Positions 43,646 through 62,907 of a stretch of DNA of 64,000 bases are shown piece by piece. The translations under genes and the position numbers were made by a program. This DNA comes from Thermoplasmata archaeon. GTDB taxonomy: Archaea > Thermoplasmatota > Thermoplasmata > Lutacidiplasmatales > UBA184. The notes beneath the pieces are model-generated. The model worked only from the letters and a program-made list of their open reading frames with translations, ran no database searches and had not been told where the DNA came from. The stretch is from NCBI GenBank assembly GCA_035623855.1, contig DASPSQ010000009.1, forward strand, positions 26,413-90,412, in the 5' to 3' direction. The stretch's first letter is position 1. Every line of letters starts with the position of its first letter.

Positions 43646-43685
43646 GGAGGGGGGCGAGGGTGGCGCGCCGGAGGTCGCGTGGAAA

Positions 43686-45053: not shown

Positions 45054-45100
45054 CGAGGCCTCTGAACCCGGACTTCATGCCCTTCCCTCGTCTCCCTTCG

Positions 45101-46726: not shown

Positions 46727-46744
46727 GGTACCACCGCGTTCGAA

Positions 46745-46768
46745 TATAACTGACTACAAGTTAGTATA
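46745..46768. promoter_or_regulatory. Candidate TetR operator / divergent promoter (imperfect palindrome in AT-rich spacer)
   Basis: TATAACTGACTACAAGTTAGTATA followed by AAATCTTTAA, in the 130-bp AT-rich region between the divergently oriented MFS and TetR genes. Confidence 0.45.
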
Positions 46769-46857
46769 AAATCTTTAAGTCATTTAATGTGCGACAGGAA
46801 AGAGATTATACGCTGGGAAGGGGTTCTCCGTTCCGACGGCGAGGGCGTCGGCCGGTC

Positions 46858-47460
46858 ATGCCAAAGGTCGTTCCCGAGTACAAGGAGCAGGCCCGGGCGA
46901 GGATCGTGGAAGCGGCCGCTGCAGTGTTCAAGCGGGAGGGCTTGCCCGCCGGCACGATGGACGAAATCGCGCGTGAGATCGGAGTGAGCAAAGGGGCGCT
47001 CTACCTCTACTTCCCGACGAAGGCCCGCCTCCTCGAGGCCGTCCAAGCGAAGTATCGTGCCCAGTACATCGGAACACTCGAGAGACGGCTTGAGCACGGT
47101 GACGTGGCCGAAGGAATCGTCGACTCGATCGATGGGATCCTCTCGGGCGAGTTCGACCCGTCCGTGTTTCACCAGCTCGTGATGAGCGCCGGGACTGAAC
47201 CCGAAGTACGGGAAGCGATGCGTGCCGACGCCCGGGGGGACCGAATCGAACTTCGGAAGCTCCTGAAGCACCTCGAGGCTGAGGGACGCATCCCACGGAT
47301 GAAGGACCCGGAGGCCACGGTGGACGCGGTGATACTCCTCCTCCAAGGGACGTTCATGGGCGCGGCCCTGCGGGGCGACCCGAAGGAAAGCCGTGAGCAG
47401 CTCGTTCGCGCGCTTCGTCTGGTGCTCGGCCCTCCCTCCCGAGGTCCGAGACGAAACTGA
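46858..47460 (+). CDS. TetR/AcrR-family transcriptional regulator
   Basis: RIVEAAAAVFKREGLPAGTMDEIAREIGVSKGALYLYFPTKARLL is the TetR HTH signature. An alternative upstream start at 46789 would give an Arg-rich extension. Confidence 0.75.
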   Translation: MPKVVPEYKEQARARIVEAAAAVFKREGLPAGTMDEIAREIGVSKGALYLYFPTKARLLEAVQAKYRAQYIGTLERRLEHGDVAEGIVDSIDGILSGEFDPSVFHQLVMSAGTEPEVREAMRADARGDRIELRKLLKHLEAEGRIPRMKDPEATVDAVILLLQGTFMGAALRGDPKESREQLVRALRLVLGPPSRGPRRN

Positions 47461-47686: not shown

Positions 47687-49681
47687 ATGGTGCGGCGTCT
47701 CGCCGCCATAATGTTCACCGATATCGCCGGCTATACCGCGACGACCCAGTCCGACGAGGCCGGAGCCCTGAGACTGCTTCGAGAACAAGAACGGCTGCTT
47801 CGGCCCCTCTTGGAAGCTCATCGAGGACGCAAGGTGAAATCGATGGGAGATGGTCTCCTCATCGAGTTCCCGGACGCCTTGGACGCCGTCCAAAGTGCCG
47901 TGGAGCTCCAGCGTCTCACCCGAGAGCGAAATGCCCAGAGAGCCACCGCGCCTCTCCGGTTGCGGGTGGGCATCCATCTGGGTGACGTCCAAGGCCGTGG
48001 GCGAGACATCCTGGGGGACGCGGTGAATATCGCATCTCGCGTGGAACCCTTGGCCGATCCGGGGGGTGTATGCCTCACAGCTCAGGTATTCGTCCAGGTT
48101 CAGAACAAAGTCCCCTACCGGTTCGACAAGCTCGGTCCGAAACAGCTCAAAGGAGTTCGGGAACCGATCGACATCTATCGCATTGTGCTCCCTTGGGCGT
48201 CCGAGCCGTCGACACCCAGTGAGCCCACCCATCCCCGCCTCGCGGTCCTTCCGCTGGCCAATATCAGCCCGGACCCCGGCGACGAGTATTTCGCGGACGG
48301 CCTCACGGAGGAGCTCATCTCGGTCCTATCTCAGGCGCGTGGGCTCCGGGTCATTGCACGGACCTCGGTGATGCCGTACAAAGCGGCCACGAAATCGATC
48401 GCTCAAATCGGGAGTGAGCTCGGTGTCGACAGCGTCTTGGAGGGCAGCGTGCGAAAAGCAGGAAACCAGTTGCGGATCTCGGTTCAGTTGATCGATGTGC
48501 GAACCCAGGAGCATCGGTGGGCGCAGTCCTACGACCGCAAGCTCGAGAACGTCTTCGCGATCCAGGCTGAGGTCGCCGAGAAAACTGCCGAAGCATTGAA
48601 GGTCGAACTCCTACGACCCGAACGGGAAGCCATCCAGGAACGGCCGACTTCGAACCTCGTCGCGTATGAATTCTATCTGCGTGGAATCGAAGAATCTCGA
48701 CGCATCGGTTCGGGCGGATCCCGGACGGAGGAGATCGGCCGACGCGCGTGGAGGTACTTCGAAGAGGCGATTCGGGAGGATCCCGAGTTCTCGGCGGCCC
48801 ACGCCTACCTCGCCAACCACCTCCTCGCGCTCATGGGAGAGGACATTCCTGCTTCCGAGGTGGTCTCGCGTATCCGAGAACTCGTGGCCCGGGCGCTCGA
48901 ACTGAACCCGGACTCCTCGGAAGCGCACACGGCGCGGGGCAACCTCGCCATGCAAGTGGACCACGACTGGGTCCGCGCAGAAGCGGAGTTTCAGCAGGCC
49001 ATCGCCCTCAACCCGAGCAGTTCGCTCGCTCATTTCTGGTATGGAAACCTGCTCCACTTTCTGCAGCGGTTTGGCGAGTGCGAGAAGCAGCACTGCATTG
49101 CGATCGAGCTGGACCCTCTCTGGGTTTTGCCCAGGGAGAACTTGGTCTGGAGCTACGCATTCTCCGGGGACTTGGAGTCCGCGATCGCCAATTGTGAGAA
49201 GGCCGCGCAGACCTTCCGAGACAGCGGCTCCGTTCGAGTCCAACTTGCATGGCTCTATGCGTTCGCTGGCCGAGCGGCCGATGCAATGGCGGTGGTCGAA
49301 CCGATGAAGGACGTCCAGGTCCCCGACGTGTGGTTCAATCCGCTGGGGGTCCTAGCCTTCCTCGGACAACGAGAAGGTGCCCGAACGCTACTCGCAGATT
49401 GGAAAGAACACCGGCTCTCCGGGTACCTCTCGTTGGGGAATGCGGCAGCTTTTTACGCTCTCGTGGGCGAAAGAAGTACCGCGCTCGAATTGTTTGAGCA
49501 GGCGAGTCTCGAGCGTGACGTCACCGTATGGGCCGGCTACCAAGCACCCTGGTTCGACTCCATTCGAGGCGATCCGCGTTTCGTTGCGATCCTCCGGTCG
49601 GCGCAGCTACCGACCTCGATATCCCGACCGTTGATGCCGGGAGTCCCGGACGCGCAGCGCGGTGTGAACGGGCCGGCGTGA
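47687..49681 (+). CDS. Class III adenylate/guanylate cyclase (CHD) - TolB-N-like domain - TPR protein
   Basis: N-terminus AAIMFTDIAGYTATTQ...VKSMGDGLLIEF...GIHLGDV matches the CHD fold. It is followed by the PRLAVLPLANISPDPGDEYFADGLTEELISVLS region and TPR-like helical repeats. Confidence 0.75.
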   Translation: MVRRLAAIMFTDIAGYTATTQSDEAGALRLLREQERLLRPLLEAHRGRKVKSMGDGLLIEFPDALDAVQSAVELQRLTRERNAQRATAPLRLRVGIHLGDVQGRGRDILGDAVNIASRVEPLADPGGVCLTAQVFVQVQNKVPYRFDKLGPKQLKGVREPIDIYRIVLPWASEPSTPSEPTHPRLAVLPLANISPDPGDEYFADGLTEELISVLSQARGLRVIARTSVMPYKAATKSIAQIGSELGVDSVLEGSVRKAGNQLRISVQLIDVRTQEHRWAQSYDRKLENVFAIQAEVAEKTAEALKVELLRPEREAIQERPTSNLVAYEFYLRGIEESRRIGSGGSRTEEIGRRAWRYFEEAIREDPEFSAAHAYLANHLLALMGEDIPASEVVSRIRELVARALELNPDSSEAHTARGNLAMQVDHDWVRAEAEFQQAIALNPSSSLAHFWYGNLLHFLQRFGECEKQHCIAIELDPLWVLPRENLVWSYAFSGDLESAIANCEKAAQTFRDSGSVRVQLAWLYAFAGRAADAMAVVEPMKDVQVPDVWFNPLGVLAFLGQREGARTLLADWKEHRLSGYLSLGNAAAFYALVGERSTALELFEQASLERDVTVWAGYQAPWFDSIRGDPRFVAILRSAQLPTSISRPLMPGVPDAQRGVNGPA

Positions 49682-49772
49682 CCAGACCAGACAATCTCAC
49701 CGTGACGAGCCGGGGATGACCACCCTGTCCACCACCGGTTCCCCGACCGCTACTCCGGGGACTCCTCCACCG

Positions 49773-52700
49773 TTACGCAGTGCCTCGCGCCTTTGCTTTG
49801 ACGTCCCGGATTTGACCCTCGAGGCGAAGGACGTCATTGCTCGCTCCCAGGCGCGACGCGATCTCGCGGGCCCGCGTGTGCGTCTCCAACGCCAGCGCGT
49901 ACTTTCCTCGTGCCTCGTGCGCGGAGCCGAGATCCTGCAGCACCCTCAGGTATTCGACCGGCCACCCTACCTTTTCCCATAGTCGGGCCGAGGTCTCCAA
50001 AGCCCTGGCTGCCGAGATCAGATCGCCAGCGTGGGATCGGACTCGACCTTCTGCGTGCTGAGCGTAGGCCCGGATGAGGTCCTCATCCATCGCTTCTGCG
50101 AGGGCCGACAGTTCGCGAGAGCGAGCCTCCGCTTGGGATCGGTCCGACTCGGTCCCCTCCAGTCCGGTGGTGACCAGACCGAGAAGAATCGACGAGTAGA
50201 GTTGTCCGAAGAGGGCAGACTCGCCCACCCGCTGAGCGAGCTCTCGCGCTTGTCGATAGAGTGGAACCGCTTCCTCGCCCTTCCCTTGCGCTTCCCGGAT
50301 CCAAGCCAGTGTTCCGAGGCACAGGAGACGGACGGACCAGTCGGGCGACGTGTCAAGGACTTCGAGGGCCTTCGAGAGATGACTCTCGGCCCCGGCGAGG
50401 TCGCCCCGGATCGCGGCGACGCGACCGAGCACGAACAGGTCCAGCGGTTCCGGGGTCGGGGTGTATCGGGCCATGTACGCGAGCATCTCCTGCGCCAGCT
50501 CCGCGGCCCGGTCCAGCTGCCCTGCGTGGACAAGGACGTATGGGAGGAATCGGGTTCGCAACGTCATTTCGAACGGGACGCTGCGGACCTTCCGCGCGAA
50601 TCCAATCCCTTCGTCGAGCGTTCGAACGGCTTGTTCCCAGTTTCCCTGGATCTGCATATGAGCCACGCTGAGGTTGTGGAGCGCGCCCACGAAGACCTCG
50701 GGGAGGTCGTACCGCTCGCCGATGTCCCGCATTTTCTCGAGGTACTCGAACGTCCGGTTCTTCTCGGCTGGAGGGACCAGGGCGGCCAGGAGCAAGTACA
50801 CCCATCCCTCGACCTCGTGGGCGTTGACCCGCCCCGCAAGCTCCAGTGCCTTCTCGCACATGTCGCGAGCCTGCGAAATTTGGCCGTCGTACCAGTAGAG
50901 GTCCGCGAGGTCGCCGAACAGGCTCGCGAGCTCCGGTCCCTCGGGCTCGGTCTCCAGGATCTCGCGGGCGCGAACGAGTTCGCGCAGTGCCAACTCGTTC
51001 CTTTGAAAGAATTGCCTCTGGAGATATCCAAGGCGGCGGTGGAGGTCCGCCGCCCGCTTGCGATCGGACGCGGTGTCGAAAACCTGGATCGCGGCTTCCC
51101 AGGCCTCAGAGGCCATCTCCGGGTGACCGAGCGCGACCAGCTCTTCCCCCCTCTGCTCTAGAAGATGGGCGCGGAGGGCCGGCGTCGGTTGCGCCGCGAG
51201 CGCGATGTCCAGGGATCGGACCGCGCCTTCGTGGTCGTAGACCGAAGCCGCAAATTCCGCGGCCGTCTGCGCACACCTGAGCGCCTCGGCCAGATCGCCC
51301 CCCAGGCGATAGTGGCGGGCGAGCTCCGAAGCAGCCTCCGGAGCATTGCCGCCCGGAATCCCCTGGAGGACGTGGGCGACCTCGAGATGGTACCGTTGCC
51401 GTCGGATCTTGGACAGTCCCGCGTAGAGGACGTCGCGGATCTGCTCGTCCACAAACTCGTACACCACCTCGCCGGGTGAGGGTTCCCTCTCGCGGAGAAG
51501 ACGGGCCCGGAGGGCGCGCTCCAGCAGGAGGAGAAGACGCTCCGACTCCAGGCCGGAAACCCGCCGGAGCCAGTCGAACCGGAACGTGCTTCCCACGACC
51601 GAGGCGATCGCGAGAACCTCGATGGTCTCGTCCCCGGCTCGTCGCACGCGGCGCAGCACGACGTCGCGCACCGACGCAGGGATTTCGATCTCCGTCGCGG
51701 ATCTCCGTCGCCATCCGTCGGACGTTCGCACCAGATCGCCTTCTTCCACAAGCGAGCGAAGGAGCTCCTCCACGAAGAACGGGTTCCCCCCCGCCTTCTC
51801 GAGGATGGGCTCCGTGACCTCGCGTGGGAGATCGGTGGCCCCGAGGATCGCGCTCGCGAGGCGGGAGCCGTCCTCGGAATCGAACCGCTTCAGGGAGAGG
51901 GAGGTGACCAAGCGGCTGCGGCGCAGCTCCGAGAGGAGCTCGGCGAGGAGATCCCCTTCCGCGAGGTCGGTATCTCGATAGGTGAGAAGGATCGCGATCC
52001 GGTGGCCCTGGAGATGGTGGGCAAGGTACTCCAAGAGACGGAGCGAACCCGGATCCGCCCACTGGAGGTCATCGATCACGATGGCGAGGGGGCCCTCGCG
52101 GGCAACGTTCTGGAAGAACTGGACCATTCCTGCGAAGAGTGTCAGTTGCGAGGGAACCGGTGCGCTCGTAGGGTGAACCGGGACGGTCCCGAGGCGCTGG
52201 GCCAGTTGCGGGACGATCTGCGCGACCTCCACCGAACAGTTGGCGCACACCTTGTAGAGGAGCAGATCCGGGATTTCGCGCACGTACTCGAGGCACGTTT
52301 CGGCCCAGACCGAATACGGGACGTCTCCCACGCCTTGGAATCCTCTCGCGCGCAACACCCGAAACGCAGTGGGGCCAGCTCTTCGGAAGACCTCCTCGGC
52401 CAGCCGGCTCTTGCCGATGCCCGAATCGCCTCCAATCGCGATGACCTGCCCCTCCCCCTGGGTGACCGCGCCCAGCAATCGACGAAGCAGGCCGAGCTCC
52501 GTCGTTCGGTCGGTCCAGGGCGTTACGCGCGCCGCCGGGGGAGCGTGCCACGGAAGGTCGACCTCGTAGACCAGGATCGGGGTGTCGATGTTCTTGAGAA
52601 ACGCGTGCTCAAGGGGCAGGAGCCGATACGGGATCTTGTTCGTGACTTGGTCGGCCACCGGGCCGGTCAGGCAGATGCCCCCGGCTTCCGCGAGAGGTTC

Positions 52701-53066
52701 GATCCTGGAGGCGATATTGACGGCATCCCCGAGCAGGTCTCCTTCTCGATGCAGGACGTCACCGACGTGAATCCCGATCCGCAGTTCGATCGCGGGAGGT
52801 TCGGACCGAGAATTCCGCTGAACGAGCGACTTCTGGATTTCGATGCCGGACTCGGTCGCAGCCAGCGCGCTATCGAACTCCACGAGGAAACCGTCCCCGA
52901 CCGTCTTCACCTCCCGACCCCCGAACCGGGTGAAGATGGGCCGGAGGATGGTCCGGTGTTCCTCGAGCAGAGTCAGCGCGAGTCGCTCTTCCCGCTGAGC
53001 CAGCGCGGACCAGCCGACCATGTCCGTGAACATGATCGCGGCCAATCGTCGTTCGCCGGCAGCCAC
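49773..53066 (-). CDS. Class III nucleotidyl cyclase (CHD) - AAA/STAND ATPase - TPR multidomain protein
   Basis: 1097 aa. N-terminal CHD (AAIMFTDMVGWSAL...KTVGDGFLVEF...GIHVGDV), Walker A (GGDSGIGKSRL) and Walker B/DDLQWAD, then a long TPR/helical region. Confidence 0.75.
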   Translation of the reverse strand: MAAGERRLAAIMFTDMVGWSALAQREERLALTLLEEHRTILRPIFTRFGGREVKTVGDGFLVEFDSALAATESGIEIQKSLVQRNSRSEPPAIELRIGIHVGDVLHREGDLLGDAVNIASRIEPLAEAGGICLTGPVADQVTNKIPYRLLPLEHAFLKNIDTPILVYEVDLPWHAPPAARVTPWTDRTTELGLLRRLLGAVTQGEGQVIAIGGDSGIGKSRLAEEVFRRAGPTAFRVLRARGFQGVGDVPYSVWAETCLEYVREIPDLLLYKVCANCSVEVAQIVPQLAQRLGTVPVHPTSAPVPSQLTLFAGMVQFFQNVAREGPLAIVIDDLQWADPGSLRLLEYLAHHLQGHRIAILLTYRDTDLAEGDLLAELLSELRRSRLVTSLSLKRFDSEDGSRLASAILGATDLPREVTEPILEKAGGNPFFVEELLRSLVEEGDLVRTSDGWRRRSATEIEIPASVRDVVLRRVRRAGDETIEVLAIASVVGSTFRFDWLRRVSGLESERLLLLLERALRARLLREREPSPGEVVYEFVDEQIRDVLYAGLSKIRRQRYHLEVAHVLQGIPGGNAPEAASELARHYRLGGDLAEALRCAQTAAEFAASVYDHEGAVRSLDIALAAQPTPALRAHLLEQRGEELVALGHPEMASEAWEAAIQVFDTASDRKRAADLHRRLGYLQRQFFQRNELALRELVRAREILETEPEGPELASLFGDLADLYWYDGQISQARDMCEKALELAGRVNAHEVEGWVYLLLAALVPPAEKNRTFEYLEKMRDIGERYDLPEVFVGALHNLSVAHMQIQGNWEQAVRTLDEGIGFARKVRSVPFEMTLRTRFLPYVLVHAGQLDRAAELAQEMLAYMARYTPTPEPLDLFVLGRVAAIRGDLAGAESHLSKALEVLDTSPDWSVRLLCLGTLAWIREAQGKGEEAVPLYRQARELAQRVGESALFGQLYSSILLGLVTTGLEGTESDRSQAEARSRELSALAEAMDEDLIRAYAQHAEGRVRSHAGDLISAARALETSARLWEKVGWPVEYLRVLQDLGSAHEARGKYALALETHTRAREIASRLGASNDVLRLEGQIRDVKAKARGTA

Positions 53067-53295
53067 GCGCGGTCATCGAGGTTCCCCAAGTTAACAACTC
53101 CGACGAGGGACTGGCGGGGCCGTCGGCCGAGACTCCTCGGCTCCAGGCGGAATGTCCTCGTGCCGTACACCGGCTCGTCTCCTTCCTTGCCGGCGGGGGA
53201 TGGCCCTCGGGAAAGAGACCACCGTCACCCAAGGGTATCTCCCGAAGGCGGACGTAGAATTGAGTCCGCGTACGCCAGGTTGGTCGTGGATGCCG

Positions 53296-53640
53296 TCAGT
53301 CGGTCTCGAACGTCAAGTCCGGCACGTTCACCGAGCGGTCCGTGATACCGAGGCCGGCCGGGGAGAACCAGCGATAGAGGTCCAGGACGAGGTACCCGCC
53401 TGCGACCAACGGGTCGGTCTGCATGAGTGCTCGGGCGTGGGCGATGGAGTCGGTCCGGAAAATGAGGAATCCGCGCAGCTCTCCGCCTTCCTCGACGGGG
53501 CCGGTCGTGATGACCTCGCCGGATTCTCGAAGGTGGCGTAGATGCGCGAGGTGCCCCTCCTGGAGTGCATCGGCATCCGTCGCAGGCGGTCGCGGAGCCG
53601 GGACGGGCCGACGGAGAACTCCCAAGGTATAGTGGGTCAT
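53296..53640 (-). CDS. YciI-like (DGPF/YCII-related) small protein
   Basis: MTHYTLGVL...GHLAHLRHLRESGEVITTGPV...GFLIFRTDSIAHARALMQTDPLVAGG fits the YciI family pattern. Confidence 0.45.
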   Translation of the reverse strand: MTHYTLGVLRRPVPAPRPPATDADALQEGHLAHLRHLRESGEVITTGPVEEGGELRGFLIFRTDSIAHARALMQTDPLVAGGYLVLDLYRWFSPAGLGITDRSVNVPDLTFETD

Positions 53641-53721
53641 CGGGGGCAGTCGGTCCATCTCGGATGCCGGCGGGTCACCGGGGGACATGGAGTAGGTCGA
53701 GTCCCGCGAATCGTTCCCGGC

Positions 53722-54276
53722 TCAAAGCTTCCCCTCCGGCTTACCGCCGGCCATTCCCGCCCGTCGCAGCTCATCGAGAGCCGCCCCGACGACTAGATCA
53801 ACGGATCCGGTCGCGTCGAGGGGGATTCCGTAGTCGAACGAGGTCGCCTTTGCGTAAACCTCTGCCGCCGCCTCCGCGCCGTGGGGCGGGGCACGCTGTG
53901 CATCCCGGGCTATGCACACCGCGAGCGAGACTTTGAGCGTGAGGACCACGTGCGGGAACGGGAGGCGCTTCTCGAGGTCCTTCACGGCGGACTTCCAATA
54001 GAAGTTGCCGTCGATCACCACCGGTACGCCCCGTTGAAGGTCCGCCATCGCCTGCTTCGCCGCGATTCCGTTGGCATCGAGAAAACTTCCCTCGGAAATG
54101 CAATCCTCATCCCAGCGCTCGAGACCGTACTTCTCCAGGATCTCGTCGATCGCGATGTGGCTCGCGGCGATTTGGTCCGCGATCCGATCGGAAACGGTGG
54201 TCTTCCCGGCACCGAGCGGCCCGCGGACGATCACGTAGTAGGCCACGCAGAATGCCTCCCCGAGCCCGGGTCGCAT
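53722..54276 (-). CDS. P-loop kinase (AAA_33 / CPT-zeta-like nucleotide kinase fold)
   Basis: YVIVRGPLGAGKTTVS Walker A near the N-terminus in a ~180-aa protein. The true start may be an internal GTG. Confidence 0.5.
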   Translation of the reverse strand: MRPGLGEAFCVAYYVIVRGPLGAGKTTVSDRIADQIAASHIAIDEILEKYGLERWDEDCISEGSFLDANGIAAKQAMADLQRGVPVVIDGNFYWKSAVKDLEKRLPFPHVVLTLKVSLAVCIARDAQRAPPHGAEAAAEVYAKATSFDYGIPLDATGSVDLVVGAALDELRRAGMAGGKPEGKL

Positions 54277-54587
54277 CGAGATTTAAGCGCGACACCCGTG
54301 AAAAGGATCGTCCGGTCGACCCTGCATGGCCGGGGGGCATGTAGCCAAGGTGAGTTCGGCTTCTTCGGGGGCGGTCGGTCTGGGGAAATCCGAAGGCGCC
54401 GGCCGATCGTGAGCATCGGAGTTCCCGAGTTCACGTCCCGATCGCTGGCTTCCGCTCAAGGAGGTGACGCCTTCAGGTCCCCTACGGAGCGGTACTGCGT
54501 CCTCGGAGAGTTGGATGCGACGGTCGGACCCTGTCGGTGTTTTCTTCCCCGTCGTGAGCGGGTCGGCGAGTTAATCTATCCCGAGCC

Positions 54588-56702
54588 GTGTTTCGAGTCG
54601 TGGCTTCGACTCGGCACCTTGCCGCTGTCATGTTTACGGACGTGGTCGGGTTCACAGCCTCGGCCCAGTCGAACGAAGCGCTCGCGTTGCACCGCCTCCA
54701 GGAGGAGCAAGGGCTGGTTCGAGCTCTCTTCCCACCCTACGGCGGGCGGGAGGTGAAGTCCACCGGCGATGGGTTTCTCGTGGAGTTCGAGAGCGCCCTG
54801 AAGGCCACGGAGTGCGCCATCGAGATCCAGCGGAGCCTGCACGAACGGAACTCCCAGTCCTCGGATTCACCGATCCACCTGCGGATCGGGATCCACGTGG
54901 GGGATGTGGAGGAGATGGGCGGGGACATTCTCGGCGACGCGGTCAACGTTGCGTCGCGGGTCATGCCGCTCGCGGATCCCGGCGGGGTGTGCCTCTCGGA
55001 ACTTGTCTTCGCTCACGTGCGCAACAAGATCGCCCTCCCGCTGGAGAAGATGGGTCCGAGATGGTTGAAGGGGGTTCGGGACCCGGTCGAGGTGTACCGG
55101 GTGGTCCTCCCGTGGTTTGTCCGTCCGAGTCCGACGGAGGGGCCCCTCCCGCCCCGCCTCGCGGTTCTGCCTCTCGCGAGCATCAGCCCGGACCCGAACG
55201 ACGCCTACTTTGCGGACGGTCTCACCGAGGAGCTCACCTCGGTTCTCTCCAAAGTCCGCGGACTCCGGGTCATCGCCCGCACGTCGGTCGGGCGGTACAC
55301 GTCGACCTCCGAGTCGATCCCCCAGATCGGAGAGGAACTCGGGGTCAGCTCGATCCTGGAGGGGAGTGTTCGAAAGGCCGGACGCCGGATTCGAGTGACG
55401 ATGCAGCTCATCGATGTCGCAAGCCAGGAGCACATTTGGTCGGAGAGCTACGATCGAGAGGTGGACGATGTTTTCGCGATTCAGGGGGAGGTCGCGAAGC
55501 GGACCGCGCTAGCACTCCGGGTCGAGCTCCTGAGCTCTGACCGAGACGTCCTCTCGAGGCGGCCCACGTCGAGCGTCGAGGCGTATGACCTCTACCTGCG
55601 AGGGATTCACGCGCTGAGGGCCTCGACGGAGGAGTCCCTCCCCCAACGGGTCACCGAGGCGATGGAATGCTTCGAAGCCGCGATCCAGACCGACCCCAAG
55701 TTCTCTCTCGCGTACTCGTACCTCGCGAACACGTTGGTGGGTGGGGTCGAGGATCGGATCCCACCACGGGAGGCCAATCTCCGGGCCAAGGAGCTCGCCG
55801 ACACGGCGCTCGAGCTGGACCCCGATTCTTCCGACGCGCACACCGCCCGGGGGAATGTCGCACGGTGGCTCGACCTCGACTGGGGGCTCGCCGAGGCGGA
55901 ATTACGGAAGGCGATCGCCCTCAACCCGAGCAACTCGATCGCCCATTTCTGCTACGGTATGCTCCTCCGAACGCTTCAGCGGTACGAGGCGGCGAAGACC
56001 GAACTCCGGTCGGCGATCGACCTCGAGTTCGACGAGTCGCGCGCGGAACTCCGTTCCTCGGTCGAGTTCGATCCGTTGGACTACGGGGCCCCGGCATGGC
56101 TCGCCGAGGTCCATTGCCGGCTGGGGGAGTGCGATTCCGCGATCTCCCTCGCGATCCAGCGGCTGCAGGAGGCGCCGGAGGAACACCGGTACCACGTGGC
56201 ACTAGGCTGGGCGTACGCCGCATCCGGGCGGTGGGAGGACGCGCGGGCGGAAGCATCGCTTTCGGCCGGACCGGCCTCGCGATGGGTCCGACTGTGCCGC
56301 GCGTCGCTTCTAGCCGTCCTCGGGTCGAGCGAGGAAGCCCGACGGCTACGTAGCGAATGGAGCGATGAAGCGAAGTCTACGTACCTGCCGCCCGCGTGGA
56401 GGGCCGGGCTCGACGCGATCCTCGGCGATCCCGACGGCGCCCTCGCCCTCCTCGAGCGCGACGTTCGAGAAGGAGACCGGTTGCTCTCCTCCGTCTATGA
56501 ATGGGAGTTCTACGACCGGATCCGGGGGGACCCGCGGTTCGCGGCTCTGCTGCACCAGATGAACCTCCCCGCGACCGTCGGCTGGAGGAGGGTGGAGGCT
56601 GCGCCTCCGACCTCGGAGCCCGCCCCCGCGTCCCCGTCACTGGGGTCTTCCCGGAACGAGACAATGACACCTACCGACTCGTGGCGGGTGGTCGGACCAT
56701 GA
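54588..56702 (+). CDS. Class III adenylate/guanylate cyclase (CHD) - TolB-N-like domain - TPR protein (paralog of 47687-49681)
   Basis: AAVMFTDVVGFTASAQ...VKSTGDGFLVEF...GIHVGDV, then PRLAVLPLASISPDPNDAYFADGLTEELTSVLS and TPR region. Confidence 0.75.
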   Translation: MFRVVASTRHLAAVMFTDVVGFTASAQSNEALALHRLQEEQGLVRALFPPYGGREVKSTGDGFLVEFESALKATECAIEIQRSLHERNSQSSDSPIHLRIGIHVGDVEEMGGDILGDAVNVASRVMPLADPGGVCLSELVFAHVRNKIALPLEKMGPRWLKGVRDPVEVYRVVLPWFVRPSPTEGPLPPRLAVLPLASISPDPNDAYFADGLTEELTSVLSKVRGLRVIARTSVGRYTSTSESIPQIGEELGVSSILEGSVRKAGRRIRVTMQLIDVASQEHIWSESYDREVDDVFAIQGEVAKRTALALRVELLSSDRDVLSRRPTSSVEAYDLYLRGIHALRASTEESLPQRVTEAMECFEAAIQTDPKFSLAYSYLANTLVGGVEDRIPPREANLRAKELADTALELDPDSSDAHTARGNVARWLDLDWGLAEAELRKAIALNPSNSIAHFCYGMLLRTLQRYEAAKTELRSAIDLEFDESRAELRSSVEFDPLDYGAPAWLAEVHCRLGECDSAISLAIQRLQEAPEEHRYHVALGWAYAASGRWEDARAEASLSAGPASRWVRLCRASLLAVLGSSEEARRLRSEWSDEAKSTYLPPAWRAGLDAILGDPDGALALLERDVREGDRLLSSVYEWEFYDRIRGDPRFAALLHQMNLPATVGWRRVEAAPPTSEPAPASPSLGSSRNETMTPTDSWRVVGP

Positions 56703-57639
56703 CCGAGAGCTGACCGTCGATCCACTGGGGATAGGTCGCAGACCGAAGACCGAAGGTCCTTCGGACCGCCAGAACCCCGTCGACCTCCAAGATCCGGCGG
56801 ATGATTTTCTCCAGGACGGCGGGTCGGTCGGCGGGAACCAGGCCGGCGAGGGGTGGGCGTTGGACCCCGGGATCGATGCCAAGTCCATCGGGCGCGACCG
56901 GAATCCAGGGGCCGACCGTCCGGCCGACCTCAGCCGCGACCGGGGCCGCCTCCGAGTCTGGGCGGAGCGAGAGGTGGAGGAGCGCCAGCGGCCACTCCTG
57001 AGAATCGGCGTTCGGGCTCCACCAGCAGGACCTGGAATCCAGGAGCAGATCGAACCGGCGCGACACGGTCTTCAGGCTGATGCCGGCGCCCGAGGCCAAG
57101 CGCGCGATCGTCGCGTCGGGATCCCGGCGAAATTCCGCGAGAAGCCTCCAATCCAGCGGGGATGGGATCCGGAGGGACCCGGGAATCCAGTACGGCGTCG
57201 GTCCCCGAGCGGAGCCTGACGGGGCCAATCTCCTCAGAAGCGAAGTCCGTCGGGTGGTCGCCGGGGGAGCGTCCGAGACGTAGTACACCTGAACCTTCCG
57301 ATCTTCTTCGTCGAGGATATCGCGCGCGAAGAGAATGCCGTCAACCAGAGCAAGGTCGTGGAAGACCCGGTCGGACTCCTGGGGGCTTCGGACCGGCACT
57401 TCAAGCATCACCGTCGTGGCTCCGAAGAGCGAAGGATTCAATCCGACCTCGCTACCCAGCAAGAGCCCGTTCTCGCGGAGCCGCCGAAGTCTTGAGCGGA
57501 CCCCGGCCTCACTCAGGCCTACCTTTCCGGCAATCTCACGAGCTGTCACACGCGGGTCGGTCAGCCGCCGGGAGGCCCAGAAACGGGCGAGGCCATCGCG
57601 GGAAAGATGCTGATAGATCGCGTAATCGATGGCGTCCAC
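56671..57639 (-). CDS. Tandem Lrp/AsnC-type HTH transcriptional regulator
   Basis: Two AsnC-like HTH units (MDAIDYAIYQHLSRDG...EIAGKVGLSEAGVRSRLRRLRENG and LDWRLLAEFRRDPDATIARLASGAGISLKTVSRRF), each followed by a putative ligand-binding region. Confidence 0.55.
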   Translation of the reverse strand: MDAIDYAIYQHLSRDGLARFWASRRLTDPRVTAREIAGKVGLSEAGVRSRLRRLRENGLLLGSEVGLNPSLFGATTVMLEVPVRSPQESDRVFHDLALVDGILFARDILDEEDRKVQVYYVSDAPPATTRRTSLLRRLAPSGSARGPTPYWIPGSLRIPSPLDWRLLAEFRRDPDATIARLASGAGISLKTVSRRFDLLLDSRSCWWSPNADSQEWPLALLHLSLRPDSEAAPVAAEVGRTVGPWIPVAPDGLGIDPGVQRPPLAGLVPADRPAVLEKIIRRILEVDGVLAVRRTFGLRSATYPQWIDGQLSVMVRPPATSR

Positions 57640-58372
57640 GTGACTCGCTCGCTAGACGGAGCCGGCTCGGAAAAGCCTAGGGGTGGCAGCCCCGCGTCGC
57701 GTCGAAGGAAGATCGGCGAGCTCGTCCGTGCAGCCGTACGGGTGGCGGGCGACGATCGACCGAGGGGCACTCCGTTCCCGACGCTTACCGGAGTTCTTCG
57801 CGGCAGACCGGGAGCCCGGCCAGAGGGATTCGAGCTGCGTCCGTTCGCGAGGCCGCTCCCAAGGGAGTGAGTCGAGCGGCCGGCACCGCATAGAGGGGCC
57901 TCGCGCGGTCCATCGCTCCGGCGGACGCGCAGGGAACCTCCGCCGTGTCCGAGAGAGCCCGGCCGGTGCGGGCCCGGGCGGTCAGCGCACGGAGCGCGGC
58001 TCGAAGCCGGCTCCAACGATCCCATGAAGGGGCTCGAAGGTCGCTCTCTGCCCCGATTGGGGTACAGGCTGCCGCGTAGATCGAAACCCGCGTGGCCCGG
58101 TCTCGGCTCGGGTAGGTCTGAAGAGAGCGGAGCTCAGCGAGGCGGGCGCTCAGGAGCGCCGCTTCCGGCATCATCCCCGTCATGCCTCTCCCCTCCTGCC
58201 TCCCCAGTCAGGAGACGGCGGTCGACGGAGTCAAGCCTGTCGATGGAGTCTGGAGGGAAACGTGAATCCCGGATGGCTCGGTGCTCGTTTCGTCACGACA
58301 AGTGTTGAAACCGGCATTCTGCAGGCCAACGGCCGGTGCGGGCGAGGGGTATGGTGGGAGGGTCGGGCTCGC

Positions 58373-58858
58373 CTACTCGGAAAGCGATCGGTCCGTCTCG
58401 GCTAGGCGGCGGGCCATCTCGGCGAGCATGCCCCGCAACATGCGGGGCTGATTCATCGCGAACCCCCAGAACTCCCACTTCGTCAGTACGAGGCAACGGG
58501 TTGGCTGGAGGGCGACGACATCCGCGGATCGGGGTTGATCGTCAAAAAGGGCCATCTCGCCAAAAAACTCTCCGGGGCCGAGAGTCGCGAGCCGTCGGCC
58601 CTTGCGCCGTACCTCTACCTGTCCCTCCAGGAGCAGGTAGAAGCCAAGCCCCTTCTCCCCCTGCTTCACCACGGTCTCTCCTTCGGTGAAACCACGGCCC
58701 TGAGAGTCCCGCGTCAGATGCCGAAGCTGGCGATCGTTCAGTCCGGAAAAGATCGGAACGCCTTGTAACATCCGAAGGGTGCTCGCATCGACCTTCGTCT
58801 CAAACGTCGACACGAAGGGCGCAAACGGCTTCCGGGATATAGAGCTGAGCTCGTCCAA
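58373..58858 (-). CDS. Standalone cyclic-nucleotide-binding (cNMP/CAP-family) domain protein
   Basis: FTEGETVVKQGEKGLGFYLLLEGQVEV...LGPGEFFGEMALFDDQPRSADVVA is the cNMP-binding beta-roll with a phosphate-binding cassette. No HTH or effector domain is present. Confidence 0.65.
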   Translation of the reverse strand: MDELSSISRKPFAPFVSTFETKVDASTLRMLQGVPIFSGLNDRQLRHLTRDSQGRGFTEGETVVKQGEKGLGFYLLLEGQVEVRRKGRRLATLGPGEFFGEMALFDDQPRSADVVALQPTRCLVLTKWEFWGFAMNQPRMLRGMLAEMARRLAETDRSLSE

Positions 58859-58969
58859 GGTCGAATGCTCGGCCCTCTCAAAGTACGGCGGACCTGCCGA
58901 TTCCCCTCCGTTCCACCGGCCCGTCTGGGCGACGAGAGATAAAAACCGCCTCTGGATCTATGAGGTCCG

Positions 58970-59506
58970 TTGCCGCACCGTACCCTCCGCGGAGAGCGCG
59001 TGGAGCTCCGACCGCTCCGCCACTCGGATGGCGCTGCCCTCGACGCGATTTTTCGGGACTCACAGGTCAAGCGCATGCTCCCGCCCCGAGTTCGGCGGGA
59101 GACCGGAGTCCAGTTCACCGCTCGGGTCCTGGGGGAGAATCGTCGAAGGGATGGCTACGCGTTCGCGGTTCGCTGGCTCGGGACGCCCGAGGCCATCGGA
59201 CTGATTCGTCTGCGAAACTGGTCCCACGAGGAACGATCGGCCGAGGTCGGTTACTGGATCCGACGCAGGGACTGGGGCCGGGGAGCGGGAAGCGAGGCAC
59301 TCCATCTCGTGTGTCGGTTCGGGTTCCGGTCGATGCGATTGCATCGCATCGTTGCGAACGTGGTCGCCGGGAACACCCGCTCGATCCGAACGCTCGAAGG
59401 CGCCGGGTTCCGCCAGGAGGGGAAGCGCCGGCTCTCCGCGCGAGTCTCGCGCGGATGGGCGGACGAACTCGAGTTCGGTCTCCTTCGAGCGGATTGGACA
59501 GGGTAG
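58970..59506 (+). CDS. GNAT-family N-acetyltransferase (RimJ/RimL-like)
   Basis: GYWIRRRDWGRGAGSEALHLVCRFGF and RIVANVVAGNTRSIRTLEGAGF match the RimJ/L-type GNAT pattern. Confidence 0.7.
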   Translation: MPHRTLRGERVELRPLRHSDGAALDAIFRDSQVKRMLPPRVRRETGVQFTARVLGENRRRDGYAFAVRWLGTPEAIGLIRLRNWSHEERSAEVGYWIRRRDWGRGAGSEALHLVCRFGFRSMRLHRIVANVVAGNTRSIRTLEGAGFRQEGKRRLSARVSRGWADELEFGLLRADWTG

Positions 59507-61650: not shown

Positions 61651-61676
61651 GCGTCAGTGCGGCCCGGCAGGTCGGA

Positions 61677-61820
61677 TTACTTCGACTTCCGCTGCGCCTC
61701 GTACTTCTTCTGACAGACCCCGGAGCAGAAGTAGACGATCCGTCCGTCGTACAGCCCCTTCGCCGGCGCCTGGTCCGTGTCGACGGTCATTCCACAAATC
61801 GGATCCGTTGCGTTGGACAT
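61677..61820 (-). CDS. Small TRASH/YHS-domain metal-binding protein (47 aa)
   Basis: Encodes MSNATDPICGMTVDTDQAPAKGLYDGRIVYFCSGVCQKKYEAQRKSK with the C-x-M...C-x3-C metal ligands of the TRASH domain. It is upstream of and co-oriented with copA, and shorter than the ORF-track cutoff. Confidence 0.55.
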   Translation of the reverse strand: MSNATDPICGMTVDTDQAPAKGLYDGRIVYFCSGVCQKKYEAQRKSK

Positions 61821-61869
61821 CTAATGACCTCACCCTCCTGAGCGCATTACTTTATTTGAGCCCTCCGCT

Positions 61870-62529: not shown

Positions 62530-62589
62530 CCGGAGGGCCCCGGACCGGAACGGAAAGTGACATGGGCGCCCCTCCGGTACGCCAGAGGA

Positions 62590-62874
62590 ATGAGCGCCGT
62601 CGTGCACTGGCACTGCGTCGCCGTGGGCCGCGTGCAGGGCGTGAACTACCGGGTCCGAGTGGCGGAGTCCGCTCGCCGCCACGGCGTTGTCGGCGCCGTG
62701 GAGAACCGCCCGGATGGATCGGTCTTCCTCGACGTCCAGGGCCCCGTGGACGTCCTCGAGGCGTTCCTCAAGGACGTTCGAGGTCCGCGCGGAATGAGCC
62801 ACGCCCACTCCGTAGAGCGCGTCGCGGAGGTTCCGGTCTCTCCCGATCTGTACGGGTTCGAGATCGTGCGATGA
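62590..62874 (+). CDS. acyP: Acylphosphatase
   Basis: VAVGRVQGVNYRVRV (V-x-G-x-V-Q-G-V-x-F-R motif) and the C-terminal GF..V pattern; ~94 aa. Confidence 0.8.
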   Translation: MSAVVHWHCVAVGRVQGVNYRVRVAESARRHGVVGAVENRPDGSVFLDVQGPVDVLEAFLKDVRGPRGMSHAHSVERVAEVPVSPDLYGFEIVR

Positions 62875-62907
62875 CCCGATCCTCGGGGTGCCGAGCCCAG
62901 AAGGCCG

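Follow-up and report, generated by a model that had tools for sequence, protein, structure and literature searches.

A putative native cAMP signaling locus with a stand-alone CRP-like receptor in a soil Thermoplasmata archaeon

Described relatives of the locus

Class III nucleotidyl cyclases are poorly documented in archaea, as the original prediction for this locus, made from the DNA alone, rightly stated (PMC1183210, PMC10249747). Its further view that archaeal cAMP stems mostly from class IV enzymes is outdated, and archaeal CYTH proteins are now regarded as non-cyclases (PMC10249747, PMC8233210). Described relatives of the largest cyclase of the locus, cycB, include Rv0386, Rv1358, and Rv2488c of Mycobacterium tuberculosis, which combine a CHD, an AAA/NB-ARC module, and a LuxR HTH domain (PMC4452763). 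Like them, cycB has a class III CHD at its N terminus and then a P-loop ATPase of the STAND type, and in sequence this CHD comes closest to LipJ/Rv1900c and Ma1120, of the short mycobacterial type. cycB differs by its archaeal host and by ending in a long TPR/TPR_MalT sensor region without a LuxR DNA-binding domain. Moreover, its CHD has the canonical Lys/Asp pair, whereas a non-canonical substrate selection is ascribed to Rv0386 (Castro 2005, as cited in PMC4452763).

The three-part architecture of cycA and cycC is that of bacterial CHD/TolB_N-like/TPR cyclases (Bacteroidota, Ignavibacteria, and others), with full-length identities of 29 to 41%. Their CHDs are closest to 3mr7 of Silicibacter (Ruegeria) pomeroyi, the top PDB match of cycA (1.3e-26), and their catalytic set also occurs in most bacterial members. 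However, the archaeal sequences form their own clade. In addition, 39 of 83 bacterial homologs have a hydrophobic stretch linking the CHD to the middle domain, which would place their sensor part outside the cytoplasm, as against 0 of 22 archaeal ones. To our knowledge, none of these bacterial cyclases has been characterized.

The stand-alone cNMP-binding protein of the locus (CNB) resembles CRP/CAP proteins (E. coli CRP, M. tuberculosis CRP, and Thermus CRP 4ev0) in its β-barrel, FGE...RSA cassette, and long C-helix, and aligns end to end with the N-terminal half of CRP (NCBIfam CRP, 3.7e-11, below threshold). Unlike CRP, it stops after the C-helix and lacks an HTH domain, which precludes a role of its own as a CRP/FNR transcription factor; the candidate for DNA binding is instead a separate neighbor unrelated to CNB, the Lrp-type protein tHTH. 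Over the CNB part only, it is also similar to mycobacterial Pat, a CNB-GNAT fusion (NCBIfam Pat, 8.5e-12), and to the Pycsar effector PycTIR (PADLOC, 2.2e-20), but it is unfused and carries no effector domain. Each half of tHTH is built, like Lrp/AsnC proteins (Pyrococcus LrpA 1i1g, PH0140, and E. coli Lrp), from a winged HTH and a RAM-like domain; in contrast to these, a single 322-aa chain joins two units as an intramolecular pseudo-dimer, and the family, conserved beside the CNB gene, is apparently restricted to Thermoplasmata where its members are named. Among fused tandem Lrp-like proteins, only NirDL (4ch7/4czc) has a solved structure. It shares this two-unit architecture, whereas tHTH lacks its essential His, a profile-level sequence match to it, and nearby tetrapyrrole genes.

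Composition and origin of the locus

The locus spans positions 47687-58858 of a 64,000-nucleotide stretch of DNA (the window), where Pfam identifies three paralogous class III cyclases, a YCII-like protein, an AAA_33 kinase-like protein, the tandem Lrp/AsnC-like protein, and CNB (Table 1). All previously listed genes were recovered at or near the positions given for them, including the YciI-like protein, the P-loop kinase, and the double-HTH regulator (here, tHTH). No transmembrane segments were found in the window proteins.

Table 1. Features of the locus, numbered from the first position of the window
Feature	Position	Strand	Length or residues	Description
cycA	47687-49681	+	664 aa	Pfam Guanylate_cyc 3.6e-15 and TPR families; predicted soluble class III adenylate cyclase
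cycA CHD	47693-48196	+	aa 3-170	
cycA middle domain	48233-48616	+	aa 183-310	TolB_N/FlgO-like
cycA TPR		+	aa ~320-640	
cycB	49773-53066	-	1097 aa	CHD-STAND ATPase-TPR; Pfam Guanylate_cyc 9.5e-14, AAA_16 1.8e-23, TPR_12, TPR_MalT
cycB CHD	52542-53051	-	aa 6-175	
cycB AAA_16	51999-52514	-	aa 185-356	
cycB TPR/TPR_MalT		-	aa ~570-1090	
YCII-like protein	53296-53688	-	130 aa	Pfam YCII 1.9e-7; 5' of cycB, same strand
AAA_33 P-loop kinase-like	53722-54276	-	174-184 aa	Pfam AAA_33 1.6e-11; divergent from cycC
cycC	54588-56702	+	704 aa	Pfam Guanylate_cyc 5.7e-13 and TPR; CHD/TolB_N-FlgO-like/TPR cyclase
cycC CHD	54612-55115	+		
cycC middle domain	55152-55535	+		
tHTH	56671-57639	-	322 aa	Pfam HTH_24 and HTH_AsnC, two stretches each; tandem Lrp/AsnC-like
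X	57785-58183	-	132 aa	ORF called on the source contig; missing from the earlier gene list
CNB	58373-58813	-	146 aa from GTG 58813	Stand-alone cNMP-binding protein; PF00027 3.4e-22
CNB phosphate-binding cassette	58517-58564	-		FGEMALFDDQPRSADV; from translation
CNB promoter-like region	58814-58870	-		TATA-like box AGCTCTATATCCCGG ~22-31 nt upstream of GTG 58813
GNAT gene	59000-59506			Divergent from adjoining CNB

The host is an archaeon, as had been predicted, since Nop5 (PF01798) is encoded on the same contig (29925-31118) and the nearest named homologs of cycA, cycB, CNB, and tHTH belong to Thermoplasmata MAGs. The suggestion that the module was possibly acquired horizontally was not supported. 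The GC and GC3 contents of the locus match the rest of the contig, TATA-like archaeal promoter elements lie about 25-30 nt before start codons (for example, TTAATCTATCC ~25 nt 5' of the cycC GTG start), and the two cyclase types have undergone wide expansion among Thermoplasmata and Nitrososphaerales. Furthermore, the archaeal sequences gather in one clade. With a native composition and a single archaeal cyclase clade, there is no sign of recent transfer; a bacterial origin, if any, would be ancient.

Two other loci (L003 and L067) likewise have a YCII gene after a cyclase. In NCBIfam, the AAA_33 kinase-like protein resembles PSTK and archaeal CMP kinase, and these only weakly. The GNAT gene beside CNB is not conserved in the CNB contexts of other genomes.

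Conserved residues and folds

The CHD hits exceed the Pfam thresholds for all three cyclases. Since the CHDs are 48 to 55% identical in pairwise comparisons and no fourth copy exists in the window, the three represent real paralogs rather than chance matches, with the architectures originally described; cycC and cycA share 49% identity. The STAND-like character of cycB was likewise borne out by its AAA_16 domain, intact Walker A (GDSGIGKS, 213-220) and Walker B (AIVIDD, 328-333) motifs, and TPR_MalT region, and a protein (P0001) on the ENA contig k141_1762632 is 100% identical to it. For the middle domain of cycA and cycC, the “TolB-N-like” label finds only Pfam matches below threshold: to FlgO in 18 of 23 members (best 3e-5) and to TolB_N in 8 of 23 (best 2e-4).

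Each CHD keeps the metal-binding Asp pair, the transition-state Asn/Arg, and the adenine-specifying Lys/Asp pair (cycA D12, K51, D55, R93, D107, N114, R118, and K155; cycB D15, K54, D58, R96, D110, N117, and R121; cycC D18, K57, D61, R99, D113, N120, R124, and K161), so that their catalytic residues are not degenerate. None of the eight catalytic or substrate residues is missing from the three window cyclases or from any of the 20 archaeal homologs. The Lys/Asp pair aligns with K101/D157 of Ma1120, two residues that mutagenesis showed to select ATP (PMC4215837). The three cyclases are thus apparently active, with cAMP as their predicted product.

CNB consists of a CRP-like β-barrel and C-helix without a DNA-binding domain; its residues 3-130 align with the N-terminal halves of the CRP family members 4ev0 and 3d0s, the alignment stopping after the C-helix. 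The original prediction of a protein made only of a cNMP-binding domain was therefore right as to its presence, but probably not as to its start. Although the ORF reaches TTG 58858, GTG 58813 (146 aa) or ATG 58771 (132 aa) is more likely, since the 727 homologs (52-92% identity) are 132-146 aa long and the longer ORF contains a conserved TATA-like box. This box recurs in L082, L092, and L080, and in a variant form in L084. In the cassette (FGE...PRSA), which aligns to functional cassettes of PKG domains, F84, G85, E86, R95, A97, D98, and V99 are invariant across 108 family members, so absence of the Glu/Arg phosphate-binding residues is excluded. With the catalytic residues kept in the cyclases and the cassette kept in CNB, neither of the two defects that the original prediction had named as fatal is present. 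The RSA cassette does not discriminate between cAMP and cGMP.

tHTH comprises two copies of a winged HTH followed by a β-α-β-β-α-β RAM-like domain, the latter undetected by Pfam. Its AlphaFold2 model (pLDDT 96.3, pTM 0.92) is a fused pseudo-dimer, whose halves match DNA-binding Lrp/AsnC factors in Foldseek with 21-23% identity and a TM-score of ~0.6 normalized to the target. The family counts no fewer than 142 proteins, ~319 aa in length, and those named all come from Thermoplasmata; S43, R48, and R50, in and next to the predicted helix 3 of the first HTH, are invariant. We regard tHTH as probably a DNA-binding output or a local regulator.

The small ORF X is conserved in position: it always either separates CNB from tHTH or immediately precedes tHTH. 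L082, L084, L080, L092, and L096 have syntenic ORFs of 130-145 aa, alignable only at the N terminus, where “M.GMGPEALLL.AR” is conserved; the tail is variable and rich in Ala, Arg, and Pro. In sequence, X is fast evolving and barely conserved. It could also be partly spurious, since only 2 relatives were found among 1.84e9 representative proteins and it shows no codon-position GC signal.

A conserved gene trio and its possible readings

In several Thermoplasmata genomes, CNB, X, and tHTH are kept together as a conserved trio of genes, an association that is new here. The order CNB-X-tHTH is found in the window, L082, L084, and L092, while L096 shows cyclase-X-tHTH; in L080, a cyclase separates CNB from X-tHTH, the distance being 6.5 kb. 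Of 9 assessable CNB contexts, 7 contain a CHD cyclase no more than 10 kb from CNB. Given the conservation of the trio across Thermoplasmata, tHTH is no casual neighbor of CNB, and the original prediction underestimated their link. The original view of the module as complete was not supported: neither the window nor the related loci yielded a cAMP phosphodiesterase.

We favor, with a probability of about 0.6, a native cAMP signaling locus with a split CRP-like logic, a reading that draws on domain content, conserved catalytic and ligand residues, the predicted tHTH fold, and gene neighborhood. Three soluble class III adenylate cyclases would convert ATP to cAMP at homodimeric CHD active sites, with differing C-terminal sensor modules controlling their dimerization or oligomerization. 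In cycA and cycC, this module would be the TolB_N/FlgO-like domain and TPR; in cycB, by analogy with MalT-type STAND proteins, the STAND ATPase and TPR may oligomerize upon binding of ligand and ATP, allowing the N-terminal CHDs to meet. CNB, 146 aa long and devoid of a DNA-binding domain, would read cAMP. Synteny suggests that it is coupled, perhaps physically, to X and tHTH, which would most likely provide the DNA-binding output (a “split CRP”); alternatively, tHTH would be a local regulator of the module.

It is unlikely, though worth weighing, that the genes are only loosely related: the cyclases part of a large, mobile paralog family dispersed genome-wide, CNB a receptor or buffer acting elsewhere, tHTH an ordinary small-ligand Lrp regulator, and proximity a matter of inherited gene order. 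In a milder form, tHTH would be an upstream, ligand-sensing regulator of CNB and cyclase transcription and not a cAMP output; Lrp-type regulators often control adjoining genes. Among 78 cyclase-centered loci from GTDB genomes, none has a tHTH orthologue and only one (L003) a close CNB gene. CNB lacks a tHTH orthologue within the sequence of L093, L094, L095, and L003, solitary CNB genes occurring in L093 and L094, and tHTH stands alone in L097, with an AAA_33 gene 6 kb away. Furthermore, CNB, X, and tHTH have separate promoter-like elements and gaps of 130-190 bp, and are thus not an obvious operon. The trio synteny could also partly reflect gene order inherited among related MAGs. However, CNB/tHTH adjacency persists at CNB identities of 63-75% although the flanking genes all differ from locus to locus, and in L086 a second CNB gene fills the slot between CNB and tHTH (CNB-CNB'-tHTH). 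Moreover, the two genes lie within 10 kb in 6 of 10 CNB contexts, against a chance proximity that we estimate, for single-copy genes in a ~2-3 Mb genome, at <1% per genome.

A different product is less probable still, whether the CHDs make cGMP or mixed purine cNMPs or some paralogs serve as regulatory, non-catalytic heterodimer partners. The RSA cassette of CNB fits either purine cNMP (compare CRP, MloK1, and PKG), and three co-located paralogs of ~50% identity could heterodimerize. Sequence rules are also imperfect: despite its Lys/Asp pair, Ma1120 shows residual guanylate cyclase activity when the pH is alkaline (PMC4215837). Nevertheless, none of the three looks like a degenerate partner, since all keep the full catalytic set. 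The canonical Glu/Cys-type guanylate pair is absent, and Lys/Asp is found in all 20 archaeal homologs, whereas bacterial relatives show Gln/Glu and Asn/Gln variants.

That tHTH is instead a siroheme decarboxylase-type enzyme (NirDL or fused AhbAB), functionally unrelated to cAMP signaling, is highly improbable. NirDL 4ch7 and 4czc are its best full-length Foldseek matches (E 2.7e-8, probability 1.00), Pfam NirdL-like_HTH matches weakly (17.4 bits versus a cutoff of 27), some family members carry PF22451, many Arg residues are invariant, and archaea take the siroheme route to heme (PMC3942049). However, the TM-score is only 0.45 at 11-12% identity (Foldseek), and the family profile retrieves LrpA, PH0140, and E. 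coli Lrp from PDB sequences (down to 1.4e-8) but no NirDL/AhbAB at E<=1. Siroheme decarboxylase needs two essential His (Haufschildt 2014, as cited in PMC4835899), whereas among 110 tHTH family members no His is invariant or nearly so. Genes for ahbC, ahbD, nirJ, or other tetrapyrrole functions occur in 0 of 7 tHTH contexts. We conclude that tHTH is not a siroheme decarboxylase.

STAND and TPR modules with an N-terminal effector domain are a typical Avs architecture. Antivirus defense, through a Pycsar-like cyclase and CNB effector or an Avs-like STAND sensor (cycB) whose cyclase effector alarms CNB, is nonetheless hardly credible: PADLOC gives weak PycC matches to the three CHDs (21-27 bits) besides that of CNB to PycTIR, and Pycsar cyclases are reported from some euryarchaea (PMC10249747), but no PADLOC model is matched over its full length, CNB has no TIR, transmembrane, or other killing domain, the cyclases retain the purine (Lys/Asp) pair, the CNB family is highly conserved with stable neighbors, unlike defense islands, and the more than 5000 cycB homologs are, where JGI names them, class 3 adenylate cyclases and/or TPR repeat proteins.

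The locus is of interest for the Archaea, where no protein of cAMP signaling has yet been characterized: since CNB and tHTH travel together in related archaea, it offers testable candidates for such signaling.

A candidate cAMP pathway and its genomic setting

The cluster may encode a "split CRP" of soil Thermoplasmata, in which soluble class III cyclases (the products of cycA, cycB and cycC) signal to a CRP-like receptor without a DNA-binding domain (CNB, a stand-alone cNMP-binding protein) that acts, with a fast-evolving adaptor (ORF X), on a fused tandem Lrp-type protein (tHTH). This would be a genuine, lineage-wide cAMP pathway, unlike the bacterial build; the reading is tentative, and we put its probability at about 0.3. 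All of the genes listed in the original prediction are present according to ORF listing and Pfam scan, and no further copy of a cyclase homology domain (CHD) or of CNB was found in the window.

Positions of the genes of the cluster and of the features around it, in order along the window
Feature	Position	Strand	Description
tRNA-Gly(CCC)	20389-20477	-	89 nt; ARAGORN call
Long ORF	20411-22516	-	5' part overlapped by the tRNA-Gly(CCC) call
Nop5/Nop56 snoRNP protein	29925-31118		PF01798
tRNA-Thr	32010-32082		
Low-GC region	32010-44000		GC 0.60-0.63
ORFs of the low-GC region	32102-33163, 33192-33881, 34311-35000, 39704-40651, 41007-41636		No Pfam match
Metal-homeostasis genes, upstream	42065-47460		Nramp, MgtE-CBS, MFS transporter with TetR regulator, CsoR-like Trns_repr_metal gene
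cycA	47687-49681	+	664 aa; CHD and TPR (Pfam)
cycB	49773-53066	-	1097 aa; CHD, AAA_16, TPR_12, TPR_MalT (Pfam)
YCII protein	53296-53688	-	Pfam
AAA_33 kinase-like protein	53722-54276	-	Pfam
cycC	54588-56702	+	704 aa; CHD and TPR (Pfam)
Convergent overlap of cycC and tHTH 3' ends	56671-56702		32 bp
tHTH	56671-57639	-	322 aa; two HTH_AsnC/HTH_24 units (Pfam)
Conserved element upstream of tHTH	57640-57784	-	AGGCTTTTCC
ORF X	57785-58183	-	132 aa, without Pfam match; independent gene calls
Conserved element upstream of ORF X	58184-58372	-	GCTTGACTCC, with TTTCC ~25 nt further upstream
CNB	58373-58858	-	cNMP_binding (Pfam)
CNB phosphate-binding cassette	58517-58564		FGEMALFDDQPRSADV
Conserved element upstream of CNB	58814-58870	-	TCTATATCC
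GNAT gene	59000-59506	+	Acetyltransf_3; divergent from CNB and adjoining it
Metal-homeostasis genes, downstream	59572-63000		CopA P-type ATPase, YHS, ABATE/zf-CGNR

The window sits within ENA contig k141_1762632 (73.6 kb, sample ERZ27251239), for which the gene calls and precomputed Pfam matches agree with our analysis; these independent calls add the ORF in the gap between receptor and HTH protein and the GNAT gene just past the receptor. The public calls begin cycB and cycC at an internal ATG (1086 and 690 aa), cutting the conserved RRLAAIMFTD strand, and give CNB only 99 aa, so that its β-barrel is truncated. For all three genes, upstream GTG starts agree better with the homologues.

That the host is an archaeon is borne out by the Nop5/Nop56 gene on the same contig, which also carries gyrB, a class II HMG-CoA reductase gene and other housekeeping genes. 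In related loci, too, there are markers of archaea, among them Ta0938 and the small subunit of PolD. Among species-representative genomes, the closest relatives of cycA are found in Thermoplasmata MAGs (64-43% identity), then in Nitrososphaerales (~40-52%) and then in Bacteroidota (~30-41%). The NCBI-named close homologues of cycB, the receptor and tHTH belong to Thermoplasmata, with the exception of one cycB relative from a thaumarchaeon.

Metal-homeostasis genes surround the cluster on both sides. Further upstream, GC falls right after tRNA-Thr in a region that could be an integrated element; no integrase was detected in it. The tRNA-Gly(CCC) call finds no confirmation in Rfam at the gathering score; it could be a false positive or an archaeal tRNA with an intron.

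Catalytic and sensor domains of the cyclases

The CHDs match PF00211 at 56.5 (cycA), 51.8 (cycB) and 49.3 bits (cycC) against a gathering score of 21.9, with pairwise identities of 48-55%. Their best PDB cyclase matches are 3mr7 (1.3e-26), Ma1120 (1e-17) and Rv1900c/LipJ (7e-11), and their NCBIfam match is LipJ; of the cyclase types, the short bacterial one is closest to them. Catalytic residues were read from an alignment with 3mr7 and Ma1120 and by motif search. The metal-binding Asp pair (FTD and GDG motifs) is intact in cycA (D12, D55), cycB (D15, D58) and cycC (D18, D61). The phosphate-binding Arg is R93, R96 and R99, respectively, and the C-terminal Lys is K155, K158 and K161, while the transition-state Asn and Arg (N114/R118, N117/R121 and N120/R124), in the motif xVNxAxR, are spaced as A164/R168 of Ma1120. 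Since this set is intact in all three domains, at all eight catalytic and substrate positions, the objection that they might be degenerate pseudo-cyclases fails.

The substrate pair, K51/D107 in cycA, K54/D110 in cycB and K57/D113 in cycC, aligns exactly with K101/D157 of Ma1120, which specify ATP, as established by mutagenesis (PMC4215837). The choice between adenine and guanine posed in the original prediction is thus answered by adenine-type Lys/Asp in all three CHDs, not the Glu/Cys type, and cycA, cycB and cycC are predicted to be adenylate cyclases. All eight positions are kept in 20/20 archaeal homologues; among bacterial relatives, some carry Gln/Glu and Asn/Gln variants at the substrate pair.

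Between CHD and TPR, the products of cycA and cycC carry a middle domain (cycA residues 183-310), for which all Pfam matches are sub-threshold. FlgO (PF17680) is matched in 18/23 homologues (best 3.1e-5) and TolB_N (PF04052) in 8/23 (best 2.4e-4), and there are FlgT_M and LpoB matches too; the middle and TPR regions together resemble the HilA/EilA regulators, likewise below threshold (NCBIfam). A profile of the domain searched against PDB sequences gave nothing significant: a FlgO-domain protein appeared only at E 0.15, and a CcmE match (E 0.05) was spurious. An AlphaFold2 model of full-length cycA from a two-sequence alignment (cycA and cycC) has a pLDDT of 55.8, falling below 50 in the middle domain. 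The "TolB-N-like" label in the original prediction agrees with these consistent FlgO/TolB_N matches, all of them below the Pfam threshold; the domain is probably TolB_N/FlgO-like.

Transmembrane segments are absent from all of the window proteins. In 39/83 bacterial cycA/cycC homologues (L014-L078), but in 0/22 archaeal ones, a hydrophobic and probably membrane-spanning segment separates the CHD from the middle domain. Since no archaeal homologue has it, the same sensor module would be cytoplasmic in archaea and extracytoplasmic in many bacteria.

The 1097-aa cyclase (cycB) had been likened to STAND proteins of the MalT/AfsR style, and its architecture agrees. The CHD, as N-terminal effector, is followed by an AAA_16 P-loop (84.3 bits, cutoff 32.6) with intact Walker A (GDSGIGKS, 213-220) and Walker B (AIVIDD, 328-333) and by C-terminal repeats matching TPR_12 (77 bits) and, marginally, TPR_MalT (45.8 bits, cutoff 45). 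By analogy with the STAND family model, ligand and ATP would promote oligomerization of cycB and activation of its effector. More than 5000 cycB homologues are present in databases. Among characterized proteins, Rv0386, Rv1358 and Rv2488c of mycobacteria (CHD-AAA/NB-ARC-LuxR; PMC4452763) come nearest; these end in an HTH, whereas cycB ends in TPR.

Receptor, fused Lrp-type protein and ORF X

CNB matches PF00027 at 78.7 bits (cutoff 27.5) and aligns with the functional cNMP sites of PKG. Residues F84, G85, E86, R95, A97, D98 and V99 are invariant in 108 homologues. The phosphate-binding cassette is therefore intact, with both its Glu (E86) and its Arg (R95), and the objection that these might be missing fails. 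The family comprises 727 matches at 52-92% identity over approximately the full length, with members of 132-146 aa. This size range argues for a 146-aa leaderless gene that starts at GTG 58813, not for the 161-aa TTG ORF, and so does a conserved TATA-like box (AGCTCTATATCCCGG) that precedes this GTG by 22-31 nt. CNB residues 3-130 align with the N-terminal half of CRP-family proteins; the alignment stops past the C-helix, and the protein itself reaches only as far as the equivalent of CRP residue ~134-142. No HTH family was matched in CNB by Pfam, so the C-terminal HTH of CRP/FNR proteins is missing. Without a DNA-binding domain, CNB is on sequence grounds a CRP-like sensor and not a CRP/FNR family member.

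The adjoining GNAT gene recalls the mycobacterial CNB-GNAT fusion Pat, but in the window the two genes are separate. A GNAT gene also lies 3 kb from CNB in L080 (6667-7500), and a GNAT and AAA_33 kinase pair (L097:3226-4437) lies 6 kb from a tHTH orthologue. A split Pat was rejected, the adjacency not being consistently conserved across loci.

In tHTH, HTH_24 (59.1 bits) and HTH_AsnC-type (52 bits) winged HTHs each match two stretches (Pfam). The AlphaFold2 model, from a 110-sequence alignment (pLDDT 96.3, pTM 0.92), consists of two consecutive units, each a winged HTH with a β-α-β-β-α-β domain. This RAM-like domain follows each HTH in the model; Pfam PF01037 gives no match. Lrp/AsnC (FFRP) regulators are single units of ~150 aa that form dimers or octamers and bind DNA, whereas tHTH fuses two units in one 322-aa chain. 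With Foldseek, each half retrieves transcription factors of the Lrp/AsnC type, at 21-23% identity and a target-normalized TM of ~0.6, and the full-length model has as its sole match the fused sirohaem decarboxylase NirDL (E 2.7e-8, TM 0.45, 11-12% identity).

The latter match raises the alternative that tHTH is a sirohaem decarboxylase, which we reject on profile, histidine, gene-context and helix evidence. Against PDB sequences, the tHTH family profile matches Lrp factors (LrpA 1i1g at 1.4e-8) and neither NirDL nor AhbAB at E≤1. A sirohaem decarboxylase is described as needing two His (PMC4835899); no invariant or near-invariant His exists among 110 family sequences, and no tetrapyrrole genes lie near tHTH. 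Finally, the family has invariant Ser and Arg residues (S43, R48, R50) within or next to the predicted recognition-type (third) helix of its first HTH. At least 142 proteins (~319 aa, 46-86% identity) make up the family, all named ones from Thermoplasmata; a scan of metagenome contigs with tHTH found one true relative, on a 1.8-kb contig.

ORF X, which the original prediction did not list, holds its position between CNB and tHTH in at least six Thermoplasmata loci. Its six syntenic copies have in common only an N-terminus of ~12 residues (M.GMGPEALLL.AR), followed by a variable Ala/Arg/Pro-rich tail. A phmmer search over 1.84e9 representative proteins returned two relatives; PADLOC, NCBIfam and Pfam gave no family match, and the ORF has no codon-position GC signal. 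By our own estimate, chance at this GC would give an open frame of 130-145 codons in ~8% of cases per genome, so that one frame of this size in all six genomes, each time from the conserved start, is improbable as an accident. We treat ORF X as a real, fast-evolving and probably disordered protein.

Conserved neighbourhood, origin and the proposed wiring

Eleven distinct contexts were gathered from seven divergent CNB and two tHTH homologues, together with loci already in hand. In the window, CNB, X (130-145 aa across loci, without Pfam match) and tHTH (~319 aa) are co-directional, and this order recurs in L082/83, in L084/85 (with a cyclase one gene beyond) and in L092 (with a frameshifted cyclase directly upstream). 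L086 has CNB, a second CNB and tHTH; L080 has CNB, pyruvate kinase and a cyclase, then X-tHTH 6.5 kb downstream; L096 has cyclase-X-tHTH, with a CHD-AAA-TPR gene 8.5 kb off. Elsewhere, CNB has a cyclase on each side (L095), ends the run cyclase-YCII-aldo/keto reductase-CNB (L003) or lies 7 kb from a divergent CHD-AAA gene (L094), while L093, full of mobile elements, and L097 carry a single partner alone. The second CNB on the short L086 metagenome contig (343-726), a paralogue 49% identical to the window CNB, fills the X slot. In L092 (7707-9648), a cycA/cycC-like cyclase is split by the frameshift between CHD and remainder, the gene caller giving only a 421-aa TPR protein; this is a pseudogene, unless the assembly is at fault.

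These genes could be mere neighbours, a reading that we disfavour: the genes flanking the CNB/X/tHTH units vary between loci, but the CNB/tHTH pair persists. CNB and tHTH lie within 10 kb of each other in 6/10 CNB contexts, far beyond chance for single-copy genes in a genome of a few Mb, although shared ancestry contributes. Among 78 cyclase-centred loci, tHTH was found in none and a close CNB in only one, which fits a multi-copy cyclase family with only some members near a single CNB/tHTH unit.

The conserved elements upstream of CNB, X and tHTH are found at the same positions in L082, L084, L092, L080 and L096 and may be promoters or operators. No operator motif common to the three genes was found, and a search of the cluster's upstream regions for 8-mers common to them all yielded nothing of use. 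With gaps of 130-190 bp, the three genes look co-located rather than co-transcribed. The start codons of cycA, cycB, cycC and CNB are each preceded, at ~25-30 nt, by a TATA-like box.

The original prediction also considered the module complete and possibly horizontally acquired. The first suggestion is not supported, since no phosphodiesterase was found in the window or at the related loci. As for the second, cluster GC is 0.62-0.69 versus ~0.655 for the window, and GC3 is 0.72-0.82 versus 0.76-0.87 for Nop5, CopA and GyrB; with both resembling the rest of the contig and with archaeal TATA-like boxes, we reject recent transfer or a genomic island. In a tree built from CHD and middle domain by neighbour joining, a crude method applied to 101 sequences from the best 80 loci only, 22/22 archaeal sequences form one clade with no bacteria inside (bootstrap 63/100), within which Thermoplasmata and Nitrososphaerales are largely, not perfectly, separated. 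Among these 80 loci, the nearest bacterial sequences come from Bacteroidota-type MAGs (L015, L029). Such a picture fits an ancient transfer, after which the cyclases expanded in soil archaea. The paralogy of cycA and cycC, which share 49% identity over their full length, is old rather than the result of a recent tandem duplication.

Defence functions (Pycsar, a cyclase-based anti-phage system, or Avs-like STAND) were rejected, PADLOC giving domain-level matches only: PycC matches the CHDs at 21-27 bits, and the match of CNB to PycTIR is confined to the cNMP-binding part of that model (positions 31-143 of 288), CNB having no further domain and hence no killing domain. Pycsar combines a pyrimidine cyclase with a CNB effector bearing a TIR/TM killing domain, whereas the window cyclases carry purine-type Lys/Asp.

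From synteny only, we infer a coupling of CNB to tHTH. In the proposed split CRP, cAMP from the soluble cyclases would be read by CNB, which together with the adaptor X would control tHTH as a fused, pseudo-dimeric Lrp-type transcription factor. The individual parts belong to known kinds; what is new, as a variant, is that a fused Lrp-type protein is paired, in a conserved manner, with a CRP-like receptor consisting of CNB only.

These candidates bear on an acknowledged gap in archaeal cAMP biology. cAMP has been measured in archaea, yet no archaeal protein making, degrading or binding it had been characterized according to a 2023 review (PMC10249747), and archaeal CYTH proteins, which used to carry a class IV cyclase annotation, are no longer counted as cyclases (PMC10249747, PMC8233210). 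In agreement with the original prediction that class III cyclases are sparsely documented in archaea, a 2005 census reports none (PMC1183210), and a 2025 genomics paper merely lists them among Nitrososphaeraceae-specific genes (PMC13577086); in the literature accessible to us, no paper deals with Thermoplasmata class III cyclases or CNB proteins. The locus and its Thermoplasmata and Nitrososphaerales relatives supply soluble, expressible candidates with catalytic and ligand-binding residues intact, namely, three cyclases with different sensor modules, a 146-aa receptor and a conserved candidate output regulator. Although none of these organisms is in culture, how archaea make and read cAMP thus becomes testable with recombinant proteins. 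The coupling of CNB, X and tHTH, should it hold, would represent a new wiring of a cyclic-nucleotide receptor to DNA binding, and the split CRP, if true, would be the first defined chain of cAMP synthesis, reception and output in Archaea.
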